Shown here: positions 13,903 through 41,335 of the stretch, piece after piece
Layout of the letters: each line of letters starts with the position of its first letter
Numbering within the stretch: the stretch's first letter is position 1
Source of the DNA: Candidatus Bruticola sp.
GTDB taxonomy: Bacteria; Vulcanimicrobiota; Xenobia; Xenobiales; Xenobiaceae
Length of the DNA stretch: 64,000 nucleotides
Assembly: GCA_051874735.1 (NCBI GenBank)
Contig: JBJEGD010000026.1
Span: 162,247 to 226,246, forward strand
Reading direction: 5' to 3'
Notes under the pieces: model-generated
Told to the model about the DNA's origin: nothing
Seen by the model: the letters and a program-made list of their open reading frames with translations, nothing else
Database searches by the model: none
Position numbers and translations under genes: made by a program

Positions 13903-16275
13903 TTAGTAGTTAGCAAACATGGTCACAGTCACCTTACGATGGGCAGAAGCAACTAAAAGTTTGTTTATGTAGGCAGGATCGAAAGTCATATCTACACTTT
14001 TAGCTTTATAATAAATATTGCCCGTTCCATCTGTCTTAGTGGCTTCTCCATCAGCTTGTGGGTCTTTTCCGTAGGCAACCATGGAGCCAGTTAAATTTAA
14101 GCGGCTATTTTTGCCTATATCGACATTTATGTTGCCGCAGGCGTAGATAACGCCGGCTATTTCCTGATCGGAGTAATTAAGACTCTGGTAGCGACTGAGC
14201 AAACCGGCCAGTTGCTGAGATTTGTAAGTTTCGTAGTTTGAACTTTGCTCCGCTGGAGGAACTAGCTTGTCAGTTAAGTCTACATTAGTAATGGAAGTCA
14301 TTTCCTGATTGCTTCCCCCGTCAGTGGTACTTTGAGAGGCTTCTCTACCCGCGTTATAAATTCTTCGCACATCTCGATAATATTCACAAGTCGTTGGATC
14401 ATGCTTAGTAACACGAGTACCATATTGGTAAGGGCAAGAGCAATAAACAATAGACAGATCAATTGTTTGGTAGTTGCTCAAAGTGTCCTCGCCCAACATA
14501 CCTTCGGAGTAAATTTGGGCTACCATAGCTCTTCCTTTTTCATTATTTATGAAGCCTGTTATGCCTGTTATTTCTTTTCCTAAACCTCTATTCGAACTAC
14601 AGTAGGCTCTATTATTATGTTTACATGATTCGCATCCATCTATAATGTTGATATTGGCGGCAGTTTCAATGTTTATATCATCAAGTTCTGTAGCAGTTAT
14701 TCCTTCGATGATTACAGGTTTTTCGTGAGCTACACCTGTAGTAGGATCTATAGCAATATTGTCATAAGGCTTGTTGGTATCTTTATTGGGAGTAGGGGAG
14801 ATCTCTTCCATATGGGCTGTAGTGTTGTAAATAGTTTCCAAATTTACGTCGCCTTTAGCGTAAATAGAGACACCTACACCGGGATCCGACTCTAAAATAC
14901 TAGGCCCCTGCATGCTTATATTGCCTTCGGCGGTAATGGCTCCGTTGCCAATAGTAGCTCCTGAAATGGTAATGTTGCCAGTGCCAGTTAAAATAGTAGT
15001 ATCAGTGTCTCCCTGATTCTGGCTGGCAAAACCCACAATTGGACGGGTGCCATATTCATTTATATCAGAACGAATTAACAGATCGCCGTCAACATACATG
15101 TTTTTGTCGAACATAATGGCTAAATTGTCACTGTCAACGGTCATATCTTTATTGGTATTGTTGATAACTTCATAACCGCTATCTGGAAGAGTTTGACCGT
15201 AGTAGTATATCTTACCGGGATAATGGTGCAGTTCATTTTTTCCGGAAGAATTTCTTACCCATACATAGGTACCAGCCGACAATTTTGTGTCCTTGGCTGT
15301 GGCTCGAGGAATATCTTCCCAAGAAAGGGCCGTAAAGTTTTTGCCGGAATTGCTTTGTTCACTTTTTACAGTTTTAGGATTTTTGCCATTTACTTTAAAT
15401 GAGTCTCCGTAATAGACGGTTGCTCCATTTTCAACTCTAAAGCTGTTGTCGTTTTTTTTGTTAACTTTCAAATCTACTTTACCCAAAGAGCGCATGTTGG
15501 GAGCGGCAGAACCATCTGAGGAAACTAAAGAAAATGACTCTACTTTGCCTGTAATATTGCCGGCAGCGCTGACTACAGAGTCAGAATTTAAAAAATCGGG
15601 ATCGAGAGATACGTAAAGTTCTAGTATTTGCTGAGCACAGCCGGATTTTTCGTTTATAGGCTCATTTAAGGTGGCTTCACGCACCGCTTCGCCACTGAAG
15701 CCCTCTACGATAAGGTTACAGGTGGCTTTGGGAATAGTGACTGCCTGTACATTGTTGTTGGGAGTAAAAACATTTTTGGTTCCGTCGTTTACATATTTGC
15801 CCATAACTACGCCGTTTTTATCAGCGGGATAGGCAAAGCGAGGAACCGTGTTAAAAAGGTTGTTGGTGGAAATGTAAGGGGAAGCAATTTTCTTAGAGCT
15901 ATTTTTCATACCGTCCAGGCCGTCATCTCCGTCTTCACAGTTAAATTTAATACGGAAGACTGATTTTTTGCCGTTAGTGCTGGTTAAAATGCCCCAGACG
16001 TTTCCTTCTGCTTCTTTTACTTCAAAATTGTTAGTTTTCAGCTCATAAGGGGAAGAGGGGTTTGCTTTCCAAAGAATATTGCTCTGCAGGCGGGTAATAG
16101 CATATTGAGCACCTGATTGAGCTGCTATCAGAGCATTTTCTTTATCGTAAAAATTATTAGTCAGCCTGAAACTGCCGAAGTTAGAGTAAACTACTGAGCT
16201 CAGGAGCATGATAACTAAAACAACTGCTAGCATTGTTGTTATTAATACAATGCCTTTTTTCCGTCCCTTCAGCAT
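13903..16275 (-). CDS. large PilX_N/GspK-like pseudopilin-domain protein, paralog 1 (790 aa)
   Basis: N-terminus MLKGRKKG-IVLITTMLAVVLVIMLLSSVVYSN...ENALIAAQSGAQYAITRLQ has the PilX/GspK layout with no Glu at +5. GGGAGG RBS 5 nt upstream. Paralogous to the next two genes. Confidence 0.7.
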   Translation of the reverse strand: MLKGRKKGIVLITTMLAVVLVIMLLSSVVYSNFGSFRLTNNFYDKENALIAAQSGAQYAITRLQSNILWKANPSSPYELKTNNFEVKEAEGNVWGILTSTNGKKSVFRIKFNCEDGDDGLDGMKNSSKKIASPYISTNNLFNTVPRFAYPADKNGVVMGKYVNDGTKNVFTPNNNVQAVTIPKATCNLIVEGFSGEAVREATLNEPINEKSGCAQQILELYVSLDPDFLNSDSVVSAAGNITGKVESFSLVSSDGSAAPNMRSLGKVDLKVNKKNDNSFRVENGATVYYGDSFKVNGKNPKTVKSEQSNSGKNFTALSWEDIPRATAKDTKLSAGTYVWVRNSSGKNELHHYPGKIYYYGQTLPDSGYEVINNTNKDMTVDSDNLAIMFDKNMYVDGDLLIRSDINEYGTRPIVGFASQNQGDTDTTILTGTGNITISGATIGNGAITAEGNISMQGPSILESDPGVGVSIYAKGDVNLETIYNTTAHMEEISPTPNKDTNKPYDNIAIDPTTGVAHEKPVIIEGITATELDDINIETAANINIIDGCESCKHNNRAYCSSNRGLGKEITGITGFINNEKGRAMVAQIYSEGMLGEDTLSNYQTIDLSIVYCSCPYQYGTRVTKHDPTTCEYYRDVRRIYNAGREASQSTTDGGSNQEMTSITNVDLTDKLVPPAEQSSNYETYKSQQLAGLLSRYQSLNYSDQEIAGVIYACGNINVDIGKNSRLNLTGSMVAYGKDPQADGEATKTDGTGNIYYKAKSVDMTFDPAYINKLLVASAHRKVTVTMFANY

Positions 16276-16511
16276 TTCTGCCTCCCAAAAATAATTATCA
16301 GAAATAAACTGTTAAAAAGAATGGCATAAATCCTCTTAATTATAGGTCTTATTAAAAAAATTATCAATTAAAAAGCATATTACGTATGTTCAAGAAATAA
16401 AAAAAACTTACTTTTCGATGTATGCCTAATAGATGTCTTTTTTACAAAAGATCGCTGCTTTCGTCGTTATTTCTGTTAAGATTGCTGGCCTTAGCTTTAA
16501 AGTTATTGTAA

Positions 16512-16546
16512 AGAAAAAAGCCCCGGATTTATATAAATCCGGGGCT
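16512..16546 (-). terminator. rho-independent terminator of pseudopilin-like paralog 2
   Basis: agccccggattt / aaatccggggct stem, followed on the minus strand by a T6 run (A-run 16514-16519 on plus). Confidence 0.75.
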
Positions 16547-16566
16547 GGATGGGCCTAGTTTGACCT

Positions 16567-19098
16567 TTAGAAGCTGGAGAACATAATCTGTTTAAGCTTT
16601 CTCCGAGCATTCAGCGAAATAAATGAACCCATGTAATCGGGGTCTAGAGTCATACCTACAGATTTGGCTTTTATATTTATTTGACCACCTTCGCCGTTGC
16701 CGGGAGTGCTGTTGCTAGGATCGCCTCCGTAGGCTATCATGGCGCCGGTTAAGTTGAGAGTACTATTAGAACCAAGGTCGGCATTAATATTGCCCCAAGC
16801 GTAGATAACTCCGGAAATATCTTGATCGGAATATTTTATTTCACCGTAGCGGGTCATCAAATCGCTGAGCTGACTCTGCTTTTTATCGCGGAAGTTCTTA
16901 CTGGCCAATTTGCTATCAACGTAGTTTTGCACGTTGCTCAAGTTATCGGGAGTAAACTCTGCATCGGATATTTCAATAGGAGTTACAGTACCATCGTCAT
17001 AGCCGTCATCGTCGTCATCGTCCCAGTTGTCATCATCAAACAGGTATTTTAATAACTTGTTAGTCTTGTTATAAAGATCTTGACGCGCTGTGGCTATTTC
17101 CCGAAACTTATCTTCAGATAAACAGAATTTATTTCGAGTGTTTGAATCTTGAGCCTGCAGATAAGCTGAGTCATCATCTTGTTTGCATTGAATGTTACAG
17201 AAATCTACAAGACAGGTACAGTATGCAAAATCATTATAATACTCTGATGAAGGTTGCCATCCTTGTATATGTTCATGTGAGCCAGCGGCTAGAGCGGCGC
17301 CCTCTTCATATCTGGACTGATAAAAATGGTCGAAGTATTTGTCAGTTTGTTGGGGACTAAAAAGATTGGAATCTATTTGACCATTTTCTCTGTAAGCAGC
17401 TAAGTATATTGACATGAGCGTCCTATATGCATTCAGAGCATCGTTTTTCATGTTTTGAGCTTCTGTAGGATGCTCAAGCCTAACTGTTTTGCCTTTGGGG
17501 TTATTTTTATTAGGTCCTTTTGATTTTCCAGGTTCGCTGGGTTTAACACTAATCGTTGGATCGCTTTCAGCCAACTGAAATTTTTTGGGTTCAGCTTTTT
17601 TTACCGTTTCAGTTACATCTTCAATGGGCAGCAGATTGACGTCGCCTTTAGCGTAAACTGAAACGCCAACGCCAGGATCCGATTCTAAAATGCTGGGCCC
17701 TTGCAAAGAGATGTTGCCAGCTGAAATTAGGGAGCCTCCTCCTAAGGCAGCTCCTTCAATGAAAATATTGTTGTCAGAAGTTATAATCGGATAATTGCCG
17801 GAACTGTCTTTCAGAAAAGCTACAATGGGACGGGAGGCTCCACCCTCTTTATCGTAGCGAATGATAAAAGAAGAGGTTTGGCCATTGGAAGCTACAGACA
17901 GATTATCAGAAATCGTCATAGTCTGACTGCTGAAATCTATTTCTATGCCGGGCATGTTAGCCGTTATTTTTGTTTTGGCTGTATCTGCCGGAATAGAAGT
18001 GCCAGGAGGGAAGTTGCCGTCGTAGCGAACTAATACGTTTGTTTTGCCGCTTTTGTCATCGGGATCTTTTTCCCAGCGATAAGTGCCGGCTGTAACTTTT
18101 ATAAAGGATTTATCCTTGCACTTTTCCTGTACCGATTCCCACGTAACTTGGGCGAAGTTACTGGTGTCTTTGCTGGTAAAAACGGTATAGCTCGATTGCT
18201 TAGGATCTGACAGTTTAATATCGCTGGCTGCAGCTGAGACGATCTGGCCGTCAGACATGTCGAGCAGGCCAGCATTGATGGAAGCACTACCTAAAGTTCG
18301 CATCTTGGGCGCATTGCTGCCTTTAGCATTGCTGGCTCTAATTACATTGGCCTTGATTGTCAAATTACTAGCGGCGCTAGCTACAGAGTCAGTAAATTGC
18401 TCTTCGGAATCTAAAGTTAAATAAGCTTCAGAGCGGACGGAAGTTTGGCCGGATAAGTCGGAGCTGCGCAAAGCGGCTAAATCGTCAAGTTCTAAATCGC
18501 GCAGTGAATTGCCAGCAAAACCTTCAGCTATTAAGTAGCAGCTGGCTTTGCCTAGCTCAAAACTGGGGGAATTCTCAGCTTCAACATATTTTGTACCGTA
18601 GGAGTCGCTACTTTCTTTCAGCCTAATAGTGCCGTCAGCGGAAGCTGTATAAACTTTAACGGGTGTGCTGTTGAATAAATTGTTTACTGAAACGTAAGGA
18701 GAAGCAATTTTGCCTGATAAGCTACTATTGTTGAGGCCATCTAAGCCGCCTGCGCCGTCTTCATAGTTGAATTTTAAACGGAAGAAAGATCTGCGGCCGT
18801 TAGATGTAGTAATACAGCCCAGTACGTTACCTTCTTTTTCAATAACTTCTAGGCCTTTGCTAGTTTCAGAAATATTTTTTGCTTCAGCTGCTCGCCAGGT
18901 AATATTGTCTTGTAGACGAGTAACGGCGTATTGTATACCTGATTGGGCCGCCATAAGGGCTTCTTCTCTTCCGTAAAAGTTAGAGGCCAGACGCATGCCG
19001 CCCAAATTGGAGTACACAACCGAACTTAGTAGCATGATTACTAACACAACGGTGAGCATTGTAGTTATCAACACAATGCCGCGTTTGTTTTTTAGCAT
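16567..19098 (-). CDS. large PilX_N/GspK-like pseudopilin-domain protein, paralog 2 (~843 aa)
   Basis: MLKNKRG-IVLITTMLTVVLVIMLLSSVVYSN... AAGGAGG RBS 9 nt upstream of ATG 19098. The TTG at 19107 abuts the RBS and is unlikely to be the start. Confidence 0.7.
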   Translation of the reverse strand: MLKNKRGIVLITTMLTVVLVIMLLSSVVYSNLGGMRLASNFYGREEALMAAQSGIQYAVTRLQDNITWRAAEAKNISETSKGLEVIEKEGNVLGCITTSNGRRSFFRLKFNYEDGAGGLDGLNNSSLSGKIASPYVSVNNLFNSTPVKVYTASADGTIRLKESSDSYGTKYVEAENSPSFELGKASCYLIAEGFAGNSLRDLELDDLAALRSSDLSGQTSVRSEAYLTLDSEEQFTDSVASAASNLTIKANVIRASNAKGSNAPKMRTLGSASINAGLLDMSDGQIVSAAASDIKLSDPKQSSYTVFTSKDTSNFAQVTWESVQEKCKDKSFIKVTAGTYRWEKDPDDKSGKTNVLVRYDGNFPPGTSIPADTAKTKITANMPGIEIDFSSQTMTISDNLSVASNGQTSSFIIRYDKEGGASRPIVAFLKDSSGNYPIITSDNNIFIEGAALGGGSLISAGNISLQGPSILESDPGVGVSVYAKGDVNLLPIEDVTETVKKAEPKKFQLAESDPTISVKPSEPGKSKGPNKNNPKGKTVRLEHPTEAQNMKNDALNAYRTLMSIYLAAYRENGQIDSNLFSPQQTDKYFDHFYQSRYEEGAALAAGSHEHIQGWQPSSEYYNDFAYCTCLVDFCNIQCKQDDDSAYLQAQDSNTRNKFCLSEDKFREIATARQDLYNKTNKLLKYLFDDDNWDDDDDDGYDDGTVTPIEISDAEFTPDNLSNVQNYVDSKLASKNFRDKKQSQLSDLMTRYGEIKYSDQDISGVIYAWGNINADLGSNSTLNLTGAMIAYGGDPSNSTPGNGEGGQINIKAKSVGMTLDPDYMGSFISLNARRKLKQIMFSSF

Positions 19099-19210
19099 AT
19101 CTGCCAACCTCCTTTACCTAAATTTTTATGCAGCTTTTAGGAGAGTTGTTGTAAAGCCGCTCGGTATTTTTCTTGTTTATGTTGTGTTTGAAGTTTGCTC
19201 CCATAAAAAG

Positions 19211-19278
19211 AGCCTAATCTAGGCTATTACACAATTAGAGCCCGCGTCCTTTATAAAAAATTAAGAAACGTGGGCTCT
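19211..19278 (-). terminator. hairpin region downstream of paralog 3 (weak terminator candidate)
   Basis: Short hairpin agcct/aggct followed on the minus strand by ctttttat. A longer imperfect hairpin agagcccgcg / cgtgggctct has no minus-strand U-tract. Confidence 0.3.
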
Positions 19279-19344
19279 AATTTATTTTTTGTTTAATTTA
19301 GGCTTGATGCTGCGATGCTGGATCGCACAGCATAGCGTAGCTAT

Positions 19345-21738
19345 TTAGAAGCTGGAGAACATAGTCTGTTTCAGCCTGCGTCTAGCATTGGCCGCTAAGA
19401 ATGAACCCATATAGTCAGGATCGAGAGTCATGCCAATACTGCCGGCATTTATAGTAATAGTTCCTTTCTTGTCTTTACCGGGAGTTTTTGTTTTAGGATC
19501 TGCTCCGTAGGCTACCATAGCTCCTGTAAGATTGAGCGTGCTGCTCGCACCTATATCGGCATTGATATTGCCCCACGCGTAAATAACGCCGGAAATATCT
19601 TGATCGGAGTATTTGAGTTGACCGTATCGAGTCATAAGGTCGGCCAACTGAGCTTCCTTATTGTCGCGGAAGTTGTCGCTAGCTAAATCTTTATCGATGC
19701 AGTTCTGCACATTGCTGATGTCGCTCGAGGAAAGCACCGTATCAACTTCAGTGGAACCGGCTACCTGCTCGGTTGGCTCCCAGTTATCTGGATTACGGAG
19801 ATATGTATCTAGCGCTGGCATCAGAGGTTGAGATTGATCTCCTTTATCTCCTCTATGTTTAGACATCGTTAAGGCGTAATACAGTTCCAACGCTTCGTCA
19901 AAGCTCATTTTATCTCCACCTATATAAGGAGTTATACTAAGAGACGATGTAACTTCTGGCTCACCATTTTGAAGCTTTGCACAGTTGCTTGCATACTCTG
20001 CACAGTAGGCTTCAAACATCAATGCGGCTGCTGCGTGGCTAGAGTCGCTGCTAAAGAAATTACTGCACTGTTTATGTTTTGTTGTGATATGACTGATAAT
20101 ATTGTTGAAAACATTAACTTTTAGAGCGTTATATTCGTCATTTTCTTTAAGAACATAAACTTTCTCTGTAGTGCTTCCCCCTGTTGAACCGCCGTTATTG
20201 TCGACTTCTGGAGGAGTGGTAGGCTTTATAGTGTCTTTGACGGTTGAGGTCAAGTCTTCAATGGGCAGCAGATTGACGTCTTTTTTAGAGTAGATGGAGA
20301 CGCCTACGCCGGGATCTGACTCCAAAATACTGGGCCCCTGCAAAGAGATATTGCCTTCAGAAGTAATAGAGCCGCCTCCCAAAGTGGCCGCCTGCAGAAA
20401 GATATCGCCTGAAGAACTGATAATGGGTGAAGTTTTTGTTTCAGGATTTTCTAAAAGAGCAACAATAGGACGGGAAGCACCGCTGTCCTTGTCATAGCGC
20501 ACAATAAAAGAGGCGTCTTTGCCGTCGGCTACTATCAGAAGGTTCTGCGATATTTTCATAGTTTGAGTATCAAAGTCTATGGTCATTCCTGGCAGACTCG
20601 ATACAACTGTCGATTTGGCGTCTGTGGGAATAGACTCGCCAGGAGGATAGATGCCTTGATAGCGTTTCAAAACATTCTTTTTGGTGTCAGGGTCAACGCT
20701 CCACACATAAGTTCCTGATTGCAACTCTGTGTACGTCTGGCCGGGAGAGTCTGCTTTGGTGACGTCATCCCAGATAATCTGAGCAAAATTGCCCGAATCG
20801 TTGCTACTTTTTGCCGTATAGTTAGCTTCTTTGTTAATGGATTGGCCGTTTATGCTGTAACTGCAGCCTTCCCCATAGTAAAATTGGCCGCTGGGAAAAT
20901 CTATGCTGTTGCTTTGTATAGTCAGATTCTTTAAGGTGCGGATTTTGGGGGCTGAACCGCCTTTAGCATTATTTACGCGAAAAATTGAAGAATTTGTTTT
21001 TAAATCGTTGGCTGCACAAGCTACAGAATCGGTAAACTGCTCATCTGCTGCTAAGTCCAGATAGCTTTCTACGGTTACACAGATGGCATTGCAGCGCTCT
21101 TTTGAAATTTTGAGCATATCTGTCAAGCTCATATCGCGCACTCCGTCGCCAGCGAAGCCTTCTACAACAAGATAGCAGCTCGATTTATCCAGCACAAAAT
21201 TGCTGGAATTTTCGGCTTCTTGGCGGTCTTTACCGTACTCATCTTTGTAAGTGTTCAGCTTGAGAGTGCCATCTTTTGATGCTGTATAGACTTTTGTCGA
21301 TATGCTGCTGGTAAGGTTATTAACAGAGACATAAGGAGAGGGAATTTTGGCTGAGTCTGAACTATCGTTCAGGCCATCAAAGCCATTTTCGCCGTCTTCA
21401 TAATTAAATTTTATGCGAAAGAAAGAGCGGCGTCCATTTTTGCTGTCGATCATGCCGACAACATTGCCGTTATTCTCAATGACGCTTAGACCTGTGCTGC
21501 TATCCGAAATAGTTTCGCTGTCGTCGCAGCCTTTCCAAGTGATGTTGTTCTGCAGCTTAGTTATGGCGTACTGTACGCCTGACTGGGCAGCCATGATGGC
21601 CTGTTCGCGTCCGTAAAAATTGGAAGCCAGTCTCATACTGCCTATATTTGAGTAAACTATTGAGCTAAGCAGCATAATTACCAACACTACCGTTAGCATG
21701 GTAGTGATTAGTACTATGCCTCGTTTGTTTTTCAACAT
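19345..21738 (-). CDS. large PilX_N/GspK-like pseudopilin-domain protein, paralog 3 (~797 aa)
   Basis: MLKNKRG-IVLITTMLTVVLVIMLLSSIVYSN... AAGGGGG RBS 5 nt upstream of ATG 21738. The ORF is open to ATG 21753. Confidence 0.7.
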   Translation of the reverse strand: MLKNKRGIVLITTMLTVVLVIMLLSSIVYSNIGSMRLASNFYGREQAIMAAQSGVQYAITKLQNNITWKGCDDSETISDSSTGLSVIENNGNVVGMIDSKNGRRSFFRIKFNYEDGENGFDGLNDSSDSAKIPSPYVSVNNLTSSISTKVYTASKDGTLKLNTYKDEYGKDRQEAENSSNFVLDKSSCYLVVEGFAGDGVRDMSLTDMLKISKERCNAICVTVESYLDLAADEQFTDSVACAANDLKTNSSIFRVNNAKGGSAPKIRTLKNLTIQSNSIDFPSGQFYYGEGCSYSINGQSINKEANYTAKSSNDSGNFAQIIWDDVTKADSPGQTYTELQSGTYVWSVDPDTKKNVLKRYQGIYPPGESIPTDAKSTVVSSLPGMTIDFDTQTMKISQNLLIVADGKDASFIVRYDKDSGASRPIVALLENPETKTSPIISSSGDIFLQAATLGGGSITSEGNISLQGPSILESDPGVGVSIYSKKDVNLLPIEDLTSTVKDTIKPTTPPEVDNNGGSTGGSTTEKVYVLKENDEYNALKVNVFNNIISHITTKHKQCSNFFSSDSSHAAAALMFEAYCAEYASNCAKLQNGEPEVTSSLSITPYIGGDKMSFDEALELYYALTMSKHRGDKGDQSQPLMPALDTYLRNPDNWEPTEQVAGSTEVDTVLSSSDISNVQNCIDKDLASDNFRDNKEAQLADLMTRYGQLKYSDQDISGVIYAWGNINADIGASSTLNLTGAMVAYGADPKTKTPGKDKKGTITINAGSIGMTLDPDYMGSFLAANARRRLKQTMFSSF

Positions 21739-22078
21739 ACTGACCCCCTTCATTGGATTATTTATAGGCTTAAATGTATACGAAATTTTATGTCAGATGT
21801 TAATGTTCTGGGTAAAGTGTGAAAACTAAAAAGGCTCATGGCCTATCCTGCTCTCATTCTACAATAGCTTGGTTATTATTGCCAACTTAATATTGTTAAT
21901 TTTCATCCCTTTATAAATGTTCTTAACTTTTTCTTTATGTTGAGAGGAGTTCAATTTTGAGCTTTTGAGATGTTGGCAAGCTGCTATATGTTACAAAGGA
22001 GTGAGATTTTTGCAAAAATAATAAAATAGATAAAAAATTGGCTTGTCTAAGCAGAAAAAAGTTTGTAAATTTAGGATA

Positions 22079-25000
22079 ATGAATAGTAGGACTTTTTTCG
22101 TCAGCTTAGCGATTTTCTCGATCCCACTGACTGGGTCGGGCTCTTCTTGGGCTGTCGGCGCAGATTCAGCTCGTCAAGAAGCTTCCGGGGCTGAACAAAG
22201 GCATGAGGCCTCTGAAGTCCTAAGGTTAAATGGTCTAGAAAAGACTTCTGTCGTCACCTATACAGAAAAGAGTGAGGAATCGATGAACATAAACGTAGAA
22301 CGTTCTTCCGACTTATTCCGCGCCAATTCCGTGGTGCAGAATAATGGCTCTGCCGAGTCTAAGCAGATGACTGCAAGTACCTCTGCTCCGGCCGTTCCTG
22401 TGGACAGTTTCTCTTTAAACAGTACCGAGAGCAAAGAAGCTGTTGCTGGTCTTCCTAAGCTTAATGCTGCTCAGGTAAAAGCTGAAAGTACCGCGGTACA
22501 GCCTGAAAACACCGATAAAAAACAGGTTATATTCCAGTTCGACAGTCGTGGCTGCTCCCAGACTGAGCTCAGCAACATCGGGCTCAAAGGCTCCTTCAAT
22601 AATGAGACTGGTCTTTACGATCAGCATTGGAATGGCGATAAAGTTATTCCTATGCACGACGACGGTCTCAACGGCGACGCCGTAGCTGGCGATGGAGTTT
22701 ATACTGCTGCTGTCGATTTAAAAACCGGACAGAATCAACAGTTTAGTTGGGGCGTGGTTGGAGATATTACTGGCAAAGACGGTAAAGTGCAGAACGCTCA
22801 GTGGTTAGTTATGAGCGAAACTAATCCTAATTTCAACTTGAACGATTCTCCGGTACAAACTTATGCGCCTATTCAGACTCATCTCTTTGGTGTGCACAAA
22901 GAGGGAGAAGATGGCGTCCGCTTCCAAACTTGGTCCCCTGAAGTTGGTAAAGGCGACTTAGGCAACTACAAGCTCTACGTAGAAGTAAGTAATCCTCAGA
23001 CTGGCGAGATCGAAGAGCGTCTGCCCATGGAGAAAAATGAGCAGAACGGAGTTTGGACTCTCACCCAGAACGATGGTTGGAGCAAACTTAAAGGTAAAAC
23101 TTATCAGTATGCAGCCCTTAACGATAAAGGCGAGGTACTTAAGAATAAATGGGGCGGAGAAGTACGCTATTCTGATCCGCATGCCCGTTATCTGCAGGGC
23201 GAGCAGCGTGGCTTAGAGAGAATCTTCGTCGATCCCGTAATGGGCTTCGAGGTCGGTTGGTATGATGACAGCGGTAAAGGCGGTCCCAACTACGCCGATA
23301 ATCCTCAGTGGGGACGTTTCACAGTCGATTCTCATCCTAACGCGGATAGCGTTCGCTTAGTGTTGCGCGATGAAAACGGTAAGCAGCTCAATAAGCAGGA
23401 ACTGTTGGATCGTCTCGGCAAACCTGAGCGCATTCCTTACGATCAGGCCTCTCCGGAAGATAAGCATGACGTCGATGTTTTGCGCAACTGGAAGCTCGAT
23501 CAAACTGAGCCGATCGATAAATATTCCTGGATTAACAGCGTCAACGAAGATGGTTCTATCGATATGAATCGCGTGGACAGCCCTGGAGCCGGCACTGCTT
23601 GGGTTACAGCTGTAAACAACTTCCCTAAACTGATCGGCATGCAATATGAATATCAGGTTGTAGAGGATGGCAAGTTAGTAGGCGACGTCAACGGAGATGG
23701 CAAACTCAGTAGCCAGGAGCGTATAGCTACTCCTTTCAACGATCCTTATACTAACGTAATTCAGCCTAAGCCCGGCTCTGCCCGCAAGTCTCTGATTCGC
23801 GAGTCTAGCTTCGAGTTCCGTTATGACAACGTACCCAGACGCCAAACTAATCAGAACAACTTTGTAATTTATGAAGCTCATGTCGGTTCATTCATGAGTT
23901 CTAAAGACAACGCTGTGCCGGCCACTTTTGAAGACATGATTAATAATCTCGATTATTTCGCTTCTTTAGGAGTAGATACTATCGAGTTAATGCCTACAAA
24001 CGAGTTCGGCGCCAAACGCGACTGGGGTTATACTCCCGATTTCTATTACGCCGGTGCGGCTAGTTACGGTTTTGAAATGGATCGCCAAGAGGCCATCGAT
24101 CGCAAGCTGATTACTGACGACGAACAGCCTGGAGCCAAGAGTGTCTGGATATCTGGTACAGATGCTATGAAGCTCTTCGTCGATGAGAGCCATAAACGCG
24201 GTTTCAACGTCATGGCCGATGTAGTTTACAACCACACTTCTGGCAAGCCCGATGCCGATGATCCTCTGGGGCGTATCGATGGCGATAAGCGCTCTTTCTT
24301 CAACTGGTGGCAGAAAGGTGAGTCTTACACTCCTTGGGGAGCTAAGCCCAATTTTGCTAATCAAAACGTAAAAGATTTCTATTCCGACAACGCGGTTCAG
24401 CAAGTTGCCGAATTCGGCTTCGATGGTATCCGCTTCGACTTTACGCAGGTTCTCCATTCTACAGGTAATTCTGCCGAGCAGATTGAAGGCATGAACACGT
24501 TGCGTCAGATTAACCGCTCTTTGCGTTTAATTAAGCCCGACGTTTACACTGTAGCTGAAGACTTTAGTGGCAGTTGGCTGGTTGCTGCTGATATGGATAA
24601 GTCTGAAACTCAGGGTTATGGTCCCGGCAGCTGGGAAAAGAAAGGCATGGGCTTCAGTGGCGTTTGGAATGACCGTTTCCACGATGATCTGTTGGAAATG
24701 GCTCAGGGACGCGGAAGTGCTGATCGCTTGATGGAAGCAATTACCTGTCACGTCGGCGTTACCGACTGGAGCAGAGCGGTAACTTACGCTCACAGTCACG
24801 ATGAAGTTGGTAATACTGGTAACTGGATGCACCGCGGCGCTGCAGCTTCCAAAGATGACGAAGCTGTCAAGCAGCCCTTCCCGCGTTCTATTGCCCGAAC
24901 TGCCTCTGCTATAACTTTGACAGGTCCTGGTGTGCCTATGCTCTTCCAGGGTGAAGAGTTCTTAGCTAATAATGACTTTAAACATGGTCTGACTTCTACC

Positions 25001-25546
25001 TGGGGCGCCGACATGGATTGGACTAAGTTCCCCGTCACTCCCGATAAGTTAGATAACTTTGCTAGAGTGGCTTCCATGGATATGTCCTCTCGTGAAGTCG
25101 AACGTTCTCGTATGAGTGCCGATGAGCAGAAGCTCTTCGATCGTTATTGTGAGATGAGTCCTGAGGAGAAGAATAAAGCTGAAGATATGGCCAACCAGGT
25201 CGGTCAGTTTATTCTCACTCGCGACTTAGTCGCTTTGCGCCGCACTTCTCCGGCTCTTAATGCGACCGGTAATATCAGCCGTGTTTACACCCATAACGAC
25301 GACAGAGTTTTGGCTTGGAAACGTGACGACGGTGGCTCCGATGAGTTCGTGGTTATTTCCAACTTCGCCAATACTGATCGTCCTGGCTACCGTATGGAGC
25401 TTCCTCCCGGTCAGTGGAAAGAAGTCTTCAATACTAACGCCCGCTGTTATGGCGGCAGCGGTACCGGTAACGGTGGCAACTCTGTAACTTCTTACGGTGG
25501 CGTATTCCTGCCTGCTGGCGGTACCATCGTTTTGAAGAAGCAGTAG
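22079..25546 (+). CDS. secreted GH13 (alpha-amylase family) alpha-glucan-active enzyme with CBM48/E-set-like modules
   Basis: Signal peptide MNSRTFFVSLAIFSIPLTGSGSSWA. CBM48-like segment LFGVHKEGEDGVRFQTWSP...GVWTL. GH13 regions: NFVIYEAHVGSF, GFDGIRFDF (nucleophile), VAEDFSG (acid/base), YAHSHDEVGN. The ORF is open from TTG 22043. Confidence 0.85.
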   Translation: MNSRTFFVSLAIFSIPLTGSGSSWAVGADSARQEASGAEQRHEASEVLRLNGLEKTSVVTYTEKSEESMNINVERSSDLFRANSVVQNNGSAESKQMTASTSAPAVPVDSFSLNSTESKEAVAGLPKLNAAQVKAESTAVQPENTDKKQVIFQFDSRGCSQTELSNIGLKGSFNNETGLYDQHWNGDKVIPMHDDGLNGDAVAGDGVYTAAVDLKTGQNQQFSWGVVGDITGKDGKVQNAQWLVMSETNPNFNLNDSPVQTYAPIQTHLFGVHKEGEDGVRFQTWSPEVGKGDLGNYKLYVEVSNPQTGEIEERLPMEKNEQNGVWTLTQNDGWSKLKGKTYQYAALNDKGEVLKNKWGGEVRYSDPHARYLQGEQRGLERIFVDPVMGFEVGWYDDSGKGGPNYADNPQWGRFTVDSHPNADSVRLVLRDENGKQLNKQELLDRLGKPERIPYDQASPEDKHDVDVLRNWKLDQTEPIDKYSWINSVNEDGSIDMNRVDSPGAGTAWVTAVNNFPKLIGMQYEYQVVEDGKLVGDVNGDGKLSSQERIATPFNDPYTNVIQPKPGSARKSLIRESSFEFRYDNVPRRQTNQNNFVIYEAHVGSFMSSKDNAVPATFEDMINNLDYFASLGVDTIELMPTNEFGAKRDWGYTPDFYYAGAASYGFEMDRQEAIDRKLITDDEQPGAKSVWISGTDAMKLFVDESHKRGFNVMADVVYNHTSGKPDADDPLGRIDGDKRSFFNWWQKGESYTPWGAKPNFANQNVKDFYSDNAVQQVAEFGFDGIRFDFTQVLHSTGNSAEQIEGMNTLRQINRSLRLIKPDVYTVAEDFSGSWLVAADMDKSETQGYGPGSWEKKGMGFSGVWNDRFHDDLLEMAQGRGSADRLMEAITCHVGVTDWSRAVTYAHSHDEVGNTGNWMHRGAAASKDDEAVKQPFPRSIARTASAITLTGPGVPMLFQGEEFLANNDFKHGLTSTWGADMDWTKFPVTPDKLDNFARVASMDMSSREVERSRMSADEQKLFDRYCEMSPEEKNKAEDMANQVGQFILTRDLVALRRTSPALNATGNISRVYTHNDDRVLAWKRDDGGSDEFVVISNFANTDRPGYRMELPPGQWKEVFNTNARCYGGSGTGNGGNSVTSYGGVFLPAGGTIVLKKQ

Positions 25547-29678: not shown

Positions 29679-31586
29679 CTAATATAAGCTGTCTAGTTCC
29701 GCTTGTAGTTCACTGAGCTCCAGAGCTGCAGCTGAAGCTTGCTCTAAGCCATTATATAAATAGGCAATTTCTGCTTCTTGGGTAAAGTTTCGGCAAATTT
29801 CTAAGCCTTCAATATATGAGCTCATACTGACTTCAAAACGCTCGGCCACAGAAGGATCTAATTGTGACCTTTCCAAAGCTGGGCGCACTCGGTTTATGTA
29901 TAAATTGCGGTAAGAGTAAGCACTGCTGAGCAGCTGACCTACTTGATCGTCTACTTCTTGAGTGTAGGCTTCTCCACTTTCCACAGATCGCACCAGCTGT
30001 TCTAGTTTTAAAATGTTGCCTGGCAGAGGAGAATTGAAACTGTCGTCGCTCAATCCTGTTTCCAAATCGGTATATTCCACCGGAGGCGTCTGGACTAGCT
30101 GCATAAGCACAGCTGAACACTTTGAACAGTAGCGAGCTGAAGCCGGATTTAGCTGTCCGCAGCGCATACAAGTCTGCTTTTTCGCCGATTCTTCTCCCAA
30201 ACCTAAATTTTTTCTCATTTGGCTGTATATGCGTTTGAATGAGGGCAAAGCTGAAGCAATGCGCCGCCATCCAGTTTTAAGCAGTTCTTTGTCTCCGCTC
30301 TCGCACCAAGAATCTAGTTCTTGACATCCTTTCATTTGACAATCAAGACAGTGAGAAAGTAAATCGAGATCCTCAGCACTGAGTTTGCCAATAGCTCCGC
30401 TTAAATTATCCTGAGCTTCGGCAATTTTTTCTGCTGTTTCTTGCAAAATTATACGGAAGGCTTCTGGTTCTATTTTGCCGTCGATAGCCAGGCCAACGGT
30501 GACAAGAAGCTCTTCAAAGTTAGGAGCTCCGGCTGTTAAACGACATTCTATATTCAAATGGGCCAAATCGTTTCTGATCAAGCAGTCTAAATTAAAAATA
30601 AGCTTGTCAAATTCTTCTAAATTTAATTCATTAAGCCCCTTTTTTTGACCTTCGTTGACTAGATGCACAATACGGGATATTCCCGCTTTAAGGGTTTCGC
30701 GGTGGACTCCGCATAAAGTACCTAAGGGATGGTTTAGCAGAGTCTGAACTTGGGTTAACTCCAATTTTAGGGCGTGTTGTACCGCTTGCCATAGATAATT
30801 GAGTTCTTCACTGGATAGGTTAGCTTCTCTGGCTCTGTACAATTCTTCAGCTAAAGGATGGTGAGCATACTTCTTTTCAGCAGCTGCCCACTGTCCCATA
30901 TCTGCCATAATTGTATACATAGTGATAGAGGTAGAGGTTAAAAGCCGAATGGCATCGTTCAGTACGTTGGTCTCTTGGCTATGCAGATAACGGTCTACAG
31001 CTCCCATGCCACTTTCTAAATTTTTTATTACCTTTTGAGCACAGTCTGAAAGAGAAGATTGACCGTAAAATAAAGTGAAGCGTTTTATAGCATGATGGAG
31101 GCGGAGGGTAAAATCGGCAGCAGGAGCAAAAAAAACGGCTAAGATAGATGAATTTATATGGCCTTTAAGTATATTGTGAGCAGCTTTAAGCAGACGATCG
31201 TAAACTGGATAAGGGGAGATCACTGATTGATTGCCGGTTTCTTCGTTGAGCGAATCCCATAAGACAGACACTTCTTCGGCACTGTATTTTAAATCGCGTC
31301 CAGCCTTTTCCAGGGCAAATCCATCATTATCACCTATAGCATGTTCCAGATCTTGTAGAGCAGCTTCGTGGGCATCCAGTTCGGAGCGCAGTTTATCAGC
31401 AAGTTTTTTTATATTGTCAGTCCAAATTACGTCCCACATAAAGCGCTCTAAACTAGTGTGTTCAAAGGCCACAACTTGTCTAGCTTTTAAAAAAAGATCA
31501 TTTAAAGCACTGGGATCAGCTTTACCATCAGATATCTTTTCACAAACTTTGATTATTTGCTGTAAGGAGGCGGGAATTTCAGGCAA
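29679..31586 (-). CDS. hypothetical all-helical protein (635 aa) with embedded zinc-ribbon
   Basis: CMRCGQLNPASARYCSKCSAVL zinc-ribbon near residue 475. The rest is predicted helical by eye. TTG start with GGAGA RBS 6 nt upstream. No nameable family. Confidence 0.6.
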   Translation of the reverse strand: MPEIPASLQQIIKVCEKISDGKADPSALNDLFLKARQVVAFEHTSLERFMWDVIWTDNIKKLADKLRSELDAHEAALQDLEHAIGDNDGFALEKAGRDLKYSAEEVSVLWDSLNEETGNQSVISPYPVYDRLLKAAHNILKGHINSSILAVFFAPAADFTLRLHHAIKRFTLFYGQSSLSDCAQKVIKNLESGMGAVDRYLHSQETNVLNDAIRLLTSTSITMYTIMADMGQWAAAEKKYAHHPLAEELYRAREANLSSEELNYLWQAVQHALKLELTQVQTLLNHPLGTLCGVHRETLKAGISRIVHLVNEGQKKGLNELNLEEFDKLIFNLDCLIRNDLAHLNIECRLTAGAPNFEELLVTVGLAIDGKIEPEAFRIILQETAEKIAEAQDNLSGAIGKLSAEDLDLLSHCLDCQMKGCQELDSWCESGDKELLKTGWRRIASALPSFKRIYSQMRKNLGLGEESAKKQTCMRCGQLNPASARYCSKCSAVLMQLVQTPPVEYTDLETGLSDDSFNSPLPGNILKLEQLVRSVESGEAYTQEVDDQVGQLLSSAYSYRNLYINRVRPALERSQLDPSVAERFEVSMSSYIEGLEICRNFTQEAEIAYLYNGLEQASAAALELSELQAELDSLY

Positions 31587-38088: not shown

Positions 38089-39540
38089 TTACTTTACTTC
38101 CTGTCCTTGATAATCGTATTTCATGGCGCCTTCGATATTGAGACGCGCTCCGCTGCCAACTTTTCCTTGAAGACTTTCCAGTTGATCCCCTCCCTTAGTG
38201 AGGCGGGTCATCAGCTCGTCGTTGCTCATGTTGGGATCCATAGCTAGAAGCAGACCGGCCGCGCCGGTAACATGGGGAGTGGCCATAGAAGTGCCGCTGT
38301 ATACCGCATAACCTCCGCCAGGAACGGTAGATAGGATGTCTTTACCGGGAGCGGCAATATCAACATTCTTTTCTCCGTAACAAGAGAAACCGGCCAGTTG
38401 ATCGTTGCGGTCTGTAGCTGCTACAGCCAAATTATTCGGCAGATTGTAGTCAGAAGGATAGTGAGGATGAATGTCATTATTCGTGCCGCTGTTGCCGGCA
38501 GACATCATGTGCAGGGCTTCAGAAGAGTTGCGGAAAGCCTCTTCGATAGCAGGGTTAGCCGGGCCGCCTCCCCAAGAATTGGAGGTCAAGCGAGCACCCA
38601 CAGAATTGGCGTAGTTAATACCGCGGATAATTGAAGCTGCATCAGCGCCGCCGTCGTCACTGAATATTTTAACGGGCAGTATTGAAGCTGACCAGTTGAT
38701 GCCACTGATACCCTCGCCATTGTTGCCTACAGCACCAATCGTACCGGCTACGTGAGAACCGTGACCTTGGCGATCCATGACGTCGCCATTTTGCAGGCAG
38801 GCGTTCCACCCGTGATAGTCGTCGATAAAGCCATTGCCGTCGTCGTCAATACCGTTTCCGGGAATTTCCCCCGTGTTGGTATAAATATTGGCGGCTAGAT
38901 CTGGGTGAGTAATATCGACTCCGGTATCAATAACTGCAATTAGCGGACCTTGGCCGTTGGGCATACCGGTAGTAATCTGCCAGGCTTCAGGAGCGTGAAT
39001 ATCGGCGCGAGCTGTACCATTTTTACTACCATCGTTATACATATCCCACTGTTGTTCGAATTTGGCATCGTTGGGGACCTTGCCTTCAGCCAGCTGCTCT
39101 CTAGTGAATTCCTGACCTTTAACTACATCTTCAGCGTGATAAATAGTGTTAGGAACAGCAAATTCGATGTTGGGATCTTGCTGCATTTGGGCTAAAGCTT
39201 CTTCTGTGGTCATGCCTTCCGGAAGCTGGAGTTGCATCATTTCGCCCATATCGGCAGCTTTAACGCGTCCGGGGATTTGGAAATTGTCTAAAACTTTAGC
39301 GCCGTATTTCTCGGCGACATTCTCTGTGTTGGCGCTGGCCAACAAGGAGCCTTTAGTTTTAATTATAACTTGGCCGGGAACAAATTCTCCTAAGGAACTT
39401 TTTTCGGAGCCTAAGCTGACAGAATCGGAGCCTACTTGCGGATTGGTATTCTCAGATTTAGCTTCAGGCTGACCGGCAACCTGAGGAGTGTAAGTGCTCT
39501 GCATCTGGTTGATGCTGTTGGAGCCAATATTAGAGATCAT
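38089..39540 (-). CDS. subtilisin-like serine protease (S8) with I9-like pro-domain, paralog A
   Basis: Asp VIDTGVD, His HGSHVAGTI, Ser GTSMATPHV. Pro-domain-like PGQVIIKTKG...AEKYGAKVL...EEALAQMQQDPNIEFAVPN. AGGAGG RBS 4 nt before the ATG. The N-terminus is polar with no Sec signal. Confidence 0.9.
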   Translation of the reverse strand: MISNIGSNSINQMQSTYTPQVAGQPEAKSENTNPQVGSDSVSLGSEKSSLGEFVPGQVIIKTKGSLLASANTENVAEKYGAKVLDNFQIPGRVKAADMGEMMQLQLPEGMTTEEALAQMQQDPNIEFAVPNTIYHAEDVVKGQEFTREQLAEGKVPNDAKFEQQWDMYNDGSKNGTARADIHAPEAWQITTGMPNGQGPLIAVIDTGVDITHPDLAANIYTNTGEIPGNGIDDDGNGFIDDYHGWNACLQNGDVMDRQGHGSHVAGTIGAVGNNGEGISGINWSASILPVKIFSDDGGADAASIIRGINYANSVGARLTSNSWGGGPANPAIEEAFRNSSEALHMMSAGNSGTNNDIHPHYPSDYNLPNNLAVAATDRNDQLAGFSCYGEKNVDIAAPGKDILSTVPGGGYAVYSGTSMATPHVTGAAGLLLAMDPNMSNDELMTRLTKGGDQLESLQGKVGSGARLNIEGAMKYDYQGQEVK

Positions 39541-39710: not shown

Positions 39711-41210
39711 TTACTGCTGAGCGATATGATACTCGTATTCCATGGCTTTATTGACATTCAGGCGGCCGCCGGAAGAAACTACGTTTTGTAGTCCGTCAAT
39801 CTTATCAGAACCTTCTAGAAGTCGAGTTTTGAGCTCATCGTTGCTCATGGTGGGATCCATAGCCAAAAGTAATCCGGCCGCACCGCTTACATGAGGAGTT
39901 GCCATAGAAGTTCCGCTCTTAGAGGCGTAACCTCCGCCTGGAACTGTGGAGTAAATGTCCTTGCCTGGAGCTGCTATATGGACTGATTCTTTGCCATAGC
40001 AGGAGAATTTGGCTAATTTATCGTTGCGATCGGTAGCTGCTACTGTAATTGAGTTATGTAAAGGATAACTGCCTGGATAGTGCGGCACTTGATCGTTATT
40101 GTCAGCAGAGTTGCCCGCTGCCATAATGTGCAAGGCCTTAGAGTGGGCGAAGGCGTCGCGTATGGCCAAGTTGGCCTCTCCACCTCCCCAGGAGTTGGAA
40201 GTTATGCGAGCACCGTTGTTGGAAGCGTAATTAATGCCGCGTATAATGGCAGCTGCATTAGTGCGTCCGTTGTCGTCAAAAATTTTAACGGGCATAACAG
40301 TTGCCTGCCAATTGACGCCGACAACTCCTTGACCGTTATTACCTTCTGCCGCAATGGTGCCGGCGCAGTGGGTGCCGTGAGAGTGGACATCCATGGGATC
40401 GCCGTTGTCGCTAAAGGCGTTGTAGCCGTGGACGTCGTCAACTACACCGTTGCCGTCGTCGTCTATGCCGTTGCCGGGGATTTCGCCGGGATTAGTCCAA
40501 ATATTATTAACTAAATCGGGATGGTTATAATCGACGCCGGTATCGATTACTGCAATAATTGGTCCTTGTCCGTTGGGAAGGCCAGTAGTTTTCTGCCAAG
40601 CTTGTGTCGCTCCGATATCGACGCCGGGAGTGCCGCCGTCCTGACCGTCGTTCTTTAACCCCCAAAGTTTTGAGTCAAGATCGTTAGGGACTTTACCTTC
40701 AGAGGTGGAGAGTTTAGCGCTAGTTGTTCCAGCTTCGGACGGTACCTCATCTTCTAAGGTATATATAGAGTTGGGGACGGCATATTCAATCTCAGGGTCT
40801 TCCTGCATAACGGCTAAGGCTTGAGCTGTAGTCATGCCTTCTGGTAGTTGCATATGGAGCATCTCACCCTGCATACCCTTGAAGATGCTGGCTTTGTTAT
40901 TAAACTTTTCTAGAACAACTGCACCGTATTTTTGGGCTATGTTGCTGGTACTCTGCATGAGAGTACCTTTTGTTTTGACAATAACTTGACCGGGTACGTG
41001 GGGCTCGAGATCCTGTTCTAATTGGGCCGCTTTAGTACTGGAAGCAGCTAAAGCTTTTTCCAGTTTAGTTTGAGGGCGAATGTCTACCTGATCGGCCTGT
41101 GAAGCCTGACAGTAAACGGTTTCCTCTTGGGGGGGCTGCGCTTTGGCTATAGTAGCAGTGCTGCCCGGCTGCAGATTGGATATGTAAGCAGAGCCAATAC
41201 TGTTGATCAT
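39711..41210 (-). CDS. subtilisin-like serine protease (S8) with I9-like pro-domain, paralog B
   Basis: VIDTGVD, HGTHCAGTI, GTSMATPHV. Start set at ATG 41210 (MINSIGS...) by a GGAGG RBS 4 nt upstream and by alignment with paralog A. The ORF is open to 41252. Confidence 0.88.
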   Translation of the reverse strand: MINSIGSAYISNLQPGSTATIAKAQPPQEETVYCQASQADQVDIRPQTKLEKALAASSTKAAQLEQDLEPHVPGQVIVKTKGTLMQSTSNIAQKYGAVVLEKFNNKASIFKGMQGEMLHMQLPEGMTTAQALAVMQEDPEIEYAVPNSIYTLEDEVPSEAGTTSAKLSTSEGKVPNDLDSKLWGLKNDGQDGGTPGVDIGATQAWQKTTGLPNGQGPIIAVIDTGVDYNHPDLVNNIWTNPGEIPGNGIDDDGNGVVDDVHGYNAFSDNGDPMDVHSHGTHCAGTIAAEGNNGQGVVGVNWQATVMPVKIFDDNGRTNAAAIIRGINYASNNGARITSNSWGGGEANLAIRDAFAHSKALHIMAAGNSADNNDQVPHYPGSYPLHNSITVAATDRNDKLAKFSCYGKESVHIAAPGKDIYSTVPGGGYASKSGTSMATPHVSGAAGLLLAMDPTMSNDELKTRLLEGSDKIDGLQNVVSSGGRLNVNKAMEYEYHIAQQ

Positions 41211-41335
41211 GGAACCTCCGTTGATACTGCAAATAGACTTTGCAGTGAACAAACAATTCTACATTCTTTAGTGTAGGCTAAAATCGTTTTCTACGTGTAA
41301 TCATGAAGTTAACGTTTCGCCGTTATAGTTGGCGG

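Follow-up and report, generated by a model that had tools for sequence, protein, structure and literature searches.

The 64,000-nucleotide stretch of Candidatus Bruticola sp. DNA analysed here (hereafter the window) contains an array of three tandem paralogous genes, P1, P2 and P3, in which two conserved flanks enclose a central segment, the cassette, that differs from copy to copy beyond alignment. In a sister species from the human gut, the cassettes of two genes of the corresponding array have been replaced between strains within otherwise nearly identical DNA, and the same types of cassette are found on different scaffolds. The explanation that we favour, with a probability of about 0.6, is that P1-P3 are giant minor pilins of the PilX/GspK/ComZ type, in which a variable, recombining cassette is carried on a constrained scaffold.

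Conserved flanks and variable cassettes

All three genes lie on the minus strand, and coordinates are positions in the window. P1 (13903..16275) is an open reading frame (ORF) of 790 residues with a PilX/GspK-type N-terminal helix, a beta-rich scaffold, a Cys-rich cassette and conserved C-terminal strands. P2 (16567..19107) has 846 residues (the database protein starts at 19098 and has 843) and P3 (19345..21753) has 802 (the database protein starts at 21738, with 797). In BLASTP every pair of paralogs breaks into two aligned segments with the middle unaligned. The N-terminal segment (residues 1 to ~505-520) is 41% identical between P1 and P2, 40% between P1 and P3 and 56% between P2 and P3; the C-terminal segment (the last 114-132 residues) is 49-69% identical across the pairs, with 49-52% for P1 to P2 or P3, and over the last ~115 residues alone the range is 49-74%. 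A three-way MAFFT alignment, read in windows of 30 residues, gives identities of 0.7-0.9 at two anchor motifs and of 0.00-0.27 in the gap-rich columns ~510-765, the cassette zone.

A preliminary description of this DNA, made by eye, had proposed just such a conserved-hypervariable-conserved mosaic, and BLASTP, the MAFFT windows and a comparison of profiles (see below) all bear it out for every pair of paralogs. Divergence is far greater in the centres than in the flanks; an equal divergence of the two had been named as what would speak against a mosaic. The first ~480-500 residues, described as conserved, are indeed homologous (40-56%), but not uniformly so, with identity down to 0.07-0.3 in columns ~270-330. 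The peptide strings that were quoted are all present in the translations.

We set the limits of the cassette between the left motif GPSILESDPGVG, present in 78 of 81 homologues, and the right motif YSDQ[DE]I[SA]GVIYA, present in nearly all of them. The cassettes thus delimited, at 14251..14802 in P1 (184 residues), 16909..17595 in P2 (229 residues) and 19687..20232 in P3 (182 residues), are close to the segments drawn by eye (14230-14845, 16946-17600 and 19723-20235), and BLASTP leaves 16966-17598 of P2 and 19744-20235 of P3 unalignable with each other. In translation, GPSILESDPGVG lies at 14872..14907 in P1, 17665..17700 in P2 and 20302..20337 in P3; the right motif reads YSDQEIAGVIYA in P1 (14140..14175) and YSDQDISGVIYA in P2 (16798..16833) and P3 (19576..19611). 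The N-terminal scaffold of P1 (14803..16275) comprises the alpha1 helix (~16081-16263) and the beta-rich body and ends beyond the left motif, and the C-terminal scaffold with the stop codon (13903..14250) adds ~115 residues of beta strands (residues 704-789 in the AlphaFold2 model).

Cassettes of the family are 148-237 residues long, and their differences include insertions and deletions. When cassette alignments were compared profile to profile, homology of P1-type cassettes to those of the P2 or P3 type was undetectable (probability <1%), and P2- and P3-type cassettes were homologous only over the last ~43 columns, which are the edge of the C flank. In the P1 cassette short strands and helices are mixed, and six cysteines form the pattern CxxC-x7-C...CxC...C. 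This pattern is kept in the P1-type cassettes (window P1; P0055, P0056, P0060, P0054, P0050, P0068, P0071, P0072) while the sequence between the cysteines changes, and could be a zinc site or a set of disulfides. P2- and P3-type cassettes have 0-5 cysteines without a fixed pattern; that of P2 is predicted to form four long helices with three low-confidence linkers, and has an acidic run, DDDNWDDDDDDGYDDG. With the P1 cassette as query, phmmer returned a single match among 1.84 billion representative proteins, to one family member. Pfam, NCBIfam and PHROGs gave no matches in the cassettes or in the scaffold outside the N-terminal helix, a profile search of PDB sequences gave none, and neither did a viral structure library at E <= 0.001.

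Cassette history in related strains and species

Arrays of this family are syntenic, lying between an amylase gene, which is always beside the array, and a CN-hydrolase gene. The array of Ca. Bruticola sp. holds genes of 799, 810, 825 and 833 residues, a split member (208 + 582 residues) and a gene of 798 residues; that of the human-gut sister species has four genes (~800-814, 781, ~787-793 and 790 residues), the first of which, beside the amylase gene, is the positional orthologue of P3; other genomes have arrays of five, six or more genes. The split member (L001, 15531-16157, 208 residues with a GspK-like N-terminus, followed directly by 16163-17911, 582 residues with both anchor motifs) looks like a frameshifted family gene, either a pseudogene or an assembly error.

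We compared three strain loci of the sister species, from different human samples (L002, L005 and L006), in 300-nt windows over 22 kb. The loci are 98-100% identical except in the cassettes of genes 1 and 3, where the divergent blocks have sharp edges. In gene 1 (nt ~1560-2040) identity drops to 42-57% in all three comparisons; in gene 3 (nt ~1560-1980) it is ~56% in the core window between L002 and either L005 or L006, the latter two being unchanged with respect to each other. The cassettes of genes 2 (781 residues) and 4 (790 residues) are as conserved as their flanks across the three loci. Only two genes of the four-gene array therefore have replaced cassettes, and hypervariability is specific to certain genes of the array. 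Invariance of the locus across strains, which the preliminary description had named as evidence against exchange, is not what these strains display.

Between strain alleles, synonymous divergence (dS) in the flanks is 0.05-0.16, and the proportion of synonymous differences (pS) in the cassette core is 0.72-0.85, a saturated value that is partly inflated by poor alignment. A more conservative measure, identity of 4-fold degenerate sites at conserved residues, gives 65-83% in the cassettes versus 93-96% in the flanks. On synonymous divergence, then, the cassette blocks are much older than the DNA that surrounds them, which points to import by recombination, or to alleles kept for a long time while their flanks were homogenised, and not to recent point mutation.

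Mosaic proteins were also found. P0022 is one residue away from P0007 across 520 scaffold columns and one residue away from P0017 across the cassette block, within which P0007 and P0017 differ at ~135 positions. Tabulating scaffold against cassette type gives a checkerboard: scaffold lineages N0 and N1 both carry cassette types M0 and M4. Hidden Markov models (HMMs) of the cassette body, built from the P2 group (window and Bruticola) and from the P3 group, split the alleles of human-gut gene 1 into P2-like (P0004-7, P0009) and P3-like (P0010-16, P0018-21, P0024, P0026, P0028), and only P0004 weakly matches both models. The two classes share one scaffold (P0005 and P0010, for example, are 99% identical in N and C), which is nearer to P3 (62-64% in N, ~81% in C) than to P2 (57-58% and ~73%). 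Judged from these distributions, cassette lineages are older than the scaffolds and uncoupled from them. Near-identical flanks, a deeply diverged internal block and the same block on different backbones, as expected of allelic replacement, are all present in the sister species.

Between the window and Ca. Bruticola sp., identities of orthologues in N-terminal scaffold, cassette and C-terminal scaffold are 84/30/80% for P2, 85/37/93% for P3 and 87/53/88% for P1; for recent tandem duplicates within Bruticola sp. the figures are 94/38/94% and 85/28/92%. In gene 2, whose cassette is inherited vertically across species, cassette and flanks have equal dS (1.3-1.45), and the ratio of nonsynonymous to synonymous divergence (dN/dS) is 0.13 in the cassette versus 0.01-0.03 in the flanks; for gene 4 the ratio is 0.27 in the cassette versus 0.04. 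Vertically inherited cassettes are therefore under purifying selection, as constrained protein modules and not junk. Basal relatives of the digester type (L026-L029, L037) have a single copy with 124-153 residues between the two motifs, versus 200-300 in the gut arrays, and from this shorter distance the cassette looks like an enlarged pre-existing loop. Some of the basal digester-type metagenome-assembled genomes (MAGs) are labelled Burkholderiales and are probably mislabelled.

The idea of an exchangeable module on a constant scaffold thus stands as an account of evolutionary history, through strain replacement, protein mosaics and cassette classes on one scaffold in the sister species. The searched collections held no second strain of the window's own species, and exchange in the window lineage is therefore deduced from its relatives.

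Probable pilin character and competing explanations

The only family match of P1-P3 is the PilX N-terminal domain (Pfam PilX_N: 20.5 bits for P1, 27.5 for P2 and 29.5 for P3, with a cutoff of 25.5 that P2 and P3 exceed). The same helix, and the helix only, weakly matches the N-terminal end of GspK, a type II secretion system (T2SS) pseudopilin (18-25 bits against a cutoff of 130). The N-terminus, MLKNKRG/IVLITTMLTVVLVIMLLSS, consists of a short basic leader, a Gly and a long hydrophobic helix, with Thr in place of Glu at +5. It has the features of a class III-like signal, namely a basic leader ending in Gly and a hydrophobic alpha1N helix of ~20 residues with no Glu at position +5.

AlphaFold2 models of P2 and P1, from alignments of 69 and 59 homologues respectively, both have a mean predicted local distance difference test score (pLDDT) of 80, with one layout: an N-terminal helix of ~60 residues (3-64 in P2), a beta-rich body to residue ~490, the cassette, and the conserved C-terminal strands. 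The helices of the P2 cassette are predicted at pLDDT 80-90. In Foldseek searches of the PDB the sole significant match was in both cases ComZ of Thermus thermophilus (6QVI), with E 5e-6 and probability 1.0 for P2 and E 8.4e-4 and probability 0.44 for P1; ice-binding beta-solenoids appeared among the weak matches of both models, as they do in the ComZ paper. ComZ has a GspK-like pilin fold with a beta-solenoid of ~380 residues inserted before the last strand, and its location at the pilus tip has been argued on steric grounds (PMC6561018). A 2026 preprint describes this solenoid architecture for every cyanobacterial PilX homologue and reports several paralogs per genome, some of which have further domains whose function is unknown; it also notes that Glu5 is missing from PilX, which caps the filament (bioRxiv 10.64898/2026.02.12.705559). 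On the models of P1 and P2, the window's proteins would fit this class of solenoid tip pilins, the cassette being an additional module.

On the favoured explanation, a hydrophobic N-terminal alpha1 helix without Glu5 would lead into a beta-rich body, a large beta-solenoid if the resemblance to ComZ is a guide; subunits of the PilX/GspK/ComZ type are thought to cap the tip of type IV filaments. Between the two near-invariant motifs the chain would leave the scaffold and form an accessory module of 150-240 residues, the cassette, and on its return the last ~115 residues would complete the scaffold. Both flanks would then build a single fold, as the order of secondary structures and the ComZ/PilX topology suggest, so that the flanks would be constrained and the cassette an excursion free to vary. 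Diversification may have followed two routes: amino-acid change several-fold faster in the cassette than in the scaffold, and homologous recombination through the anchor motifs and the surrounding scaffold, which would swap whole cassettes between strains and so let old cassette lineages circulate on nearly identical scaffolds. Tandem duplication would add independently transcribed copies, and one cell could therefore make filaments with alternative tips. We infer that the proteins are located at the tip and exposed at the surface, that they function as adhesin or antigenic pilus tip, and that the cassette serves specificity towards ligands or antigens, with diversifying or frequency-dependent selection acting on it. 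As selective agents one may think of ligand specificity, host antibody, tip-using phages or partner recognition.

Several observations weigh against this explanation. The PilX_N score of P1 is under the Pfam cutoff. The template modelling scores (TM-scores) against ComZ are low (0.11-0.23), as may occur with multi-domain proteins, and the match of P1 has the modest probability given above; the assignment of a ComZ-like fold is therefore moderate, not firm. None of the 39 ORFs scanned in the window (150 residues or more) is a pilin, pseudopilin or pilus-machinery gene, and none was found inside the arrays. The only pilin-type neighbour is a lone canonical prepilin gene (RG/FTIVEVL, 146-152 residues; L027 15043-15501, L029 14480-14938, L037 15953-16393), ~4 kb from the basal single-copy member and separated from it by unrelated genes (aldehyde dehydrogenase, cation efflux, aminotransferase). 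In each modelled cassette the prediction is of low confidence for about 20-30% of the residues, which is compatible with partial disorder (pLDDT <50 in three stretches of the P2 cassette, 66 of 229 residues, and in five short ones of P1). As to recombination, the exchange of cassettes was seen in the sister species and not in the window's species, the saturation of synonymous sites is to some degree an alignment effect, and in the Bruticola tandem duplicates identity at 4-fold degenerate sites is similar in cassette (63%) and flanks (69-74%), so that in these copies fast amino-acid change rather than import may dominate.

Disorder of this kind would be expected if the middle segment were a weakly constrained linker that drifts neutrally and confers no specificity, and the low-complexity runs (the acidic run and GGSTGGS) and the lack of Pfam, PHROG or PDB family matches in the cassettes would also suit a linker. 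Yet drift cannot yield sharp-edged, synonymously saturated blocks within 99% identical DNA, the dN/dS of 0.13-0.27 under vertical inheritance speaks for purifying selection, the six-Cys pattern is kept in P1-type cassettes, long helices are predicted with good confidence, and cassette types M0 and M4 persist across species on two scaffold lineages; we consider a neutral linker quite improbable. Somewhat different is the proposal that the proteins are not subunits of a surface pilus: they might be GspK-like tip pseudopilins of a T2SS-like system tied to the secreted amylase, or surface beta-solenoid proteins anchored by the helix. The weak GspK match is in keeping with it, as is the amylase gene (of the GH13/CBM48 type), which lies next to the first gene of the array, in divergent orientation, in 20 related loci down to the basal single-copy ones, at 62-95% amino-acid identity (L001, L002-L006, L008, L010, L011, L013, L015, L020, L022-L024, L027-L029 and L037 being the loci named). 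In Klebsiella, pulA adjoins the pul secretion genes, which offers a parallel to this pairing. The lack of pilin partners nearby points the same way, and ComZ itself is not predicted as a substrate of PilD (PMC6561018). However, T2SS genes are absent from the neighbourhood too, the GspK match lies far below its cutoff and is confined to the N-terminal helix, and the tip of a periplasmic pseudopilus gives no obvious reason for hypervariability at the level of strains. A non-pilus role of either sort is, in our judgement, unlikely.

The remaining alternatives concern how the variation is made. The preliminary description had suggested that high nucleotide identity of the flanks would allow recombination between the window's own copies, and programmed antigenic variation within one genome, by gene conversion among tandem copies or from silent cassettes as in Neisseria pilE/pilS, would require something of the sort. 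The copies are tandem, they have the anchor motifs in common, and the two longest exact nucleotide matches of P2 and P3 (26 and 20 nt, followed by one of 19 nt) sit just outside the cassette, on either side. The identity is lower than was thought, however: 76% between 16567-16660 and 19345-19440, the stretch that had been singled out, and 60-83% over the flanks of the paralogs as a whole. Identical codons and synonymous identity are not in excess at the anchors (Fisher p = 0.1-0.9), and gene conversion among the window paralogs was rejected on this account. A tblastn search of 75 cassettes against the window matches only the three genes, with no silent or additional copy; all copies are full length, each with its own terminator-like hairpin; and P1-type cassettes were never seen on P2- or P3-type scaffolds in the family set. 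Recombination between the window's own copies is not borne out by these data, and a Neisseria-type system is very improbable. Targeted hypermutation by a diversity-generating retroelement (DGR) or site-specific shuffling (shufflon, inverton) would explain that the variability is localised, and nothing else. Signatures of these systems were looked for and rejected: there is no template/variable repeat pair and no inverted repeat around the cassettes (the inverted repeats present are short ones at chance level, besides the terminator hairpins); no secretion, recombinase, reverse-transcriptase or invertase gene turned up among the 39 ORFs scanned; and the cassettes differ by indels and in length, not by adenine-specific substitutions. 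We give such mechanisms practically no credence.

One might speculate beyond the minor-pilin explanation. The arrays may be a hitherto undescribed system of tip variation in a type IV filament of gut Xenobia, in which a small set of ancient cassette lineages, balanced across species by host immunoglobulin A, by tip-using phages or by strain-specific partner recognition, is reassorted on a constant ComZ-like scaffold and gives each cell several alternative tips. The old divergent arrangement with the gene of a large secreted amylase would in that case hint at tips that bind particles of starch or glycan, or glycans of the host, with a specificity set by the cassette type. We put this forward as a tentative and rather doubtful extension; for the amylase pairing itself, starch or glycan binding and a link to secretion are both possibilities.

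Genomic setting and comparison with known systems

Homologues of P1-P3 carry names from MAGs only ('Candidatus Bruticola sp.', UBP9 bacteria, unclassified bacteria), and when one genome per GTDB species was scanned, the family turned up only in Xenobia-type MAGs, from human gut, rumen and digesters. It thus appears to be limited to the class Xenobia (UBP9; Vulcanimicrobiota/Eremiobacterota), in MAGs from these habitats. Bruticola belongs to this class, and the Eremiobacterota are placed in the Bacillati, as are the Deinococcota and the Cyanobacteria.

In the window, the amylase-like gene (22043..25546, plus strand, 1167 residues, assigned by Pfam) adjoins P3 and diverges from it. It is unusually conserved, with 95% amino-acid identity between the window and Bruticola sp., versus 73% for the CN-hydrolase on the far side of the array. 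Otherwise the array is surrounded by unremarkable genes of metabolism and transport: on one side a CN-hydrolase, POT and MFS transporters and HSP90, on the other the amylase gene. Intergenic gaps between P1, P2 and P3 are 237-291 bp. On the minus strand, strong terminator-like hairpins follow P1 (13858..13891, a 15-bp stem and a T run; inverted repeat I3) and P2 (16519..16546, a 12-bp stem and a T run; I6), and a hairpin or terminator-like region follows P3 (19211..19304; I1). Promoter-like sites, as consensus matches only, precede P1 (16339..16367, minus strand, TTGATA-17-TATAAT, 11/12) and P3 (21856..21885, minus strand, TTGGCA-18-TAGAAT, in the divergent intergenic region held in common with the amylase gene). 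P1, P2 and P3 are probably separate transcription units.

Three other features of the window are recorded here. Three consecutive long genes of the RelA/SpoT type (RSH), an unusual arrangement, lie in tandem on the plus strand at 46866-49361, 49446-51842 and 51877-54213, with a mutual identity of 30-35%; each has HD, synthetase, TGS and ACT domains, the synthetase match of the first copy being weak and partial. A tandem pair of S8 subtilases with fervidolysin-like N-terminal prodomains (38089-39540 and 39711-41252, minus strand) is 57% identical. A protein of 635 residues (29679-31586, minus strand) has a weak zinc-ribbon match and no other family, and keeps its position in related loci.

Gut Xenobia (Vulcanimicrobiota/Eremiobacterota) are uncultured, and a search of the literature on the surface proteins or biology of Xenobia, UBP9 or Bruticola found nothing relevant. 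In a region that is conserved apart from it, the array is the feature that evolves fastest, and its behaviour between strains is like that of a classical antigen or specificity locus. Should the proteins be pilus tips, they would form a naturally occurring series of module exchanges on a single ComZ/PilX scaffold, of help in finding out what type IV filament tips recognise, and they would show that diversifying selection can act on a minor tip pilin and not on the major pilin alone. The two invariant anchor motifs also offer a simple handle for strain typing and for counting cassette repertoires in metagenomes.

Among known systems, ComZ and the cyanobacterial PilX proteins are the closest, with their PilX/GspK-type N-terminal helix without Glu5, what is predicted here to be a similarly large beta-rich body in a pilin-like frame, and several paralogs per genome, some with extra domains. 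Sequence similarity between ComZ and P1-P3 is nevertheless undetectable, with 9-11% identity in the structural alignment, and P1-P3 are 250-350 residues longer, with a hypervariable module between two invariant motifs. Moreover, the family forms tandem arrays of 3-6 genes without adjoining partner pilins, whereas comZ lies beside pilA2.

In flagellin (FliC), conserved termini build the structural core, and recombination through these termini swaps the hypervariable, exposed centre between strains. The layout and the logic are the same as in P1-P3, but the fold and the filament system are unrelated, so that this is an analogy and not membership. Pseudomonas aeruginosa has deeply diverged alleles of pilA and of the minor-pilin operon at a fixed chromosomal site, exchanged by homologous recombination; there, however, whole genes or operons with accessory genes are exchanged, and in the Xenobia family an internal module of one gene. 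Neisseria pilE/pilS likewise combines a constant N-terminal part of a pilin with a variable part replaced by recombination. The array in the window differs in having neither silent partial copies nor donors of high identity and in that the variable part is internal, and the cassette exchange seen in the sister species is between strains, not within a clone. Given the modelled resemblance, P1-P3 would be best filed as a new form of ComZ/PilX-like solenoid tip pilins, carrying a hypervariable, recombining internal module, in tandem arrays of gut Xenobia.

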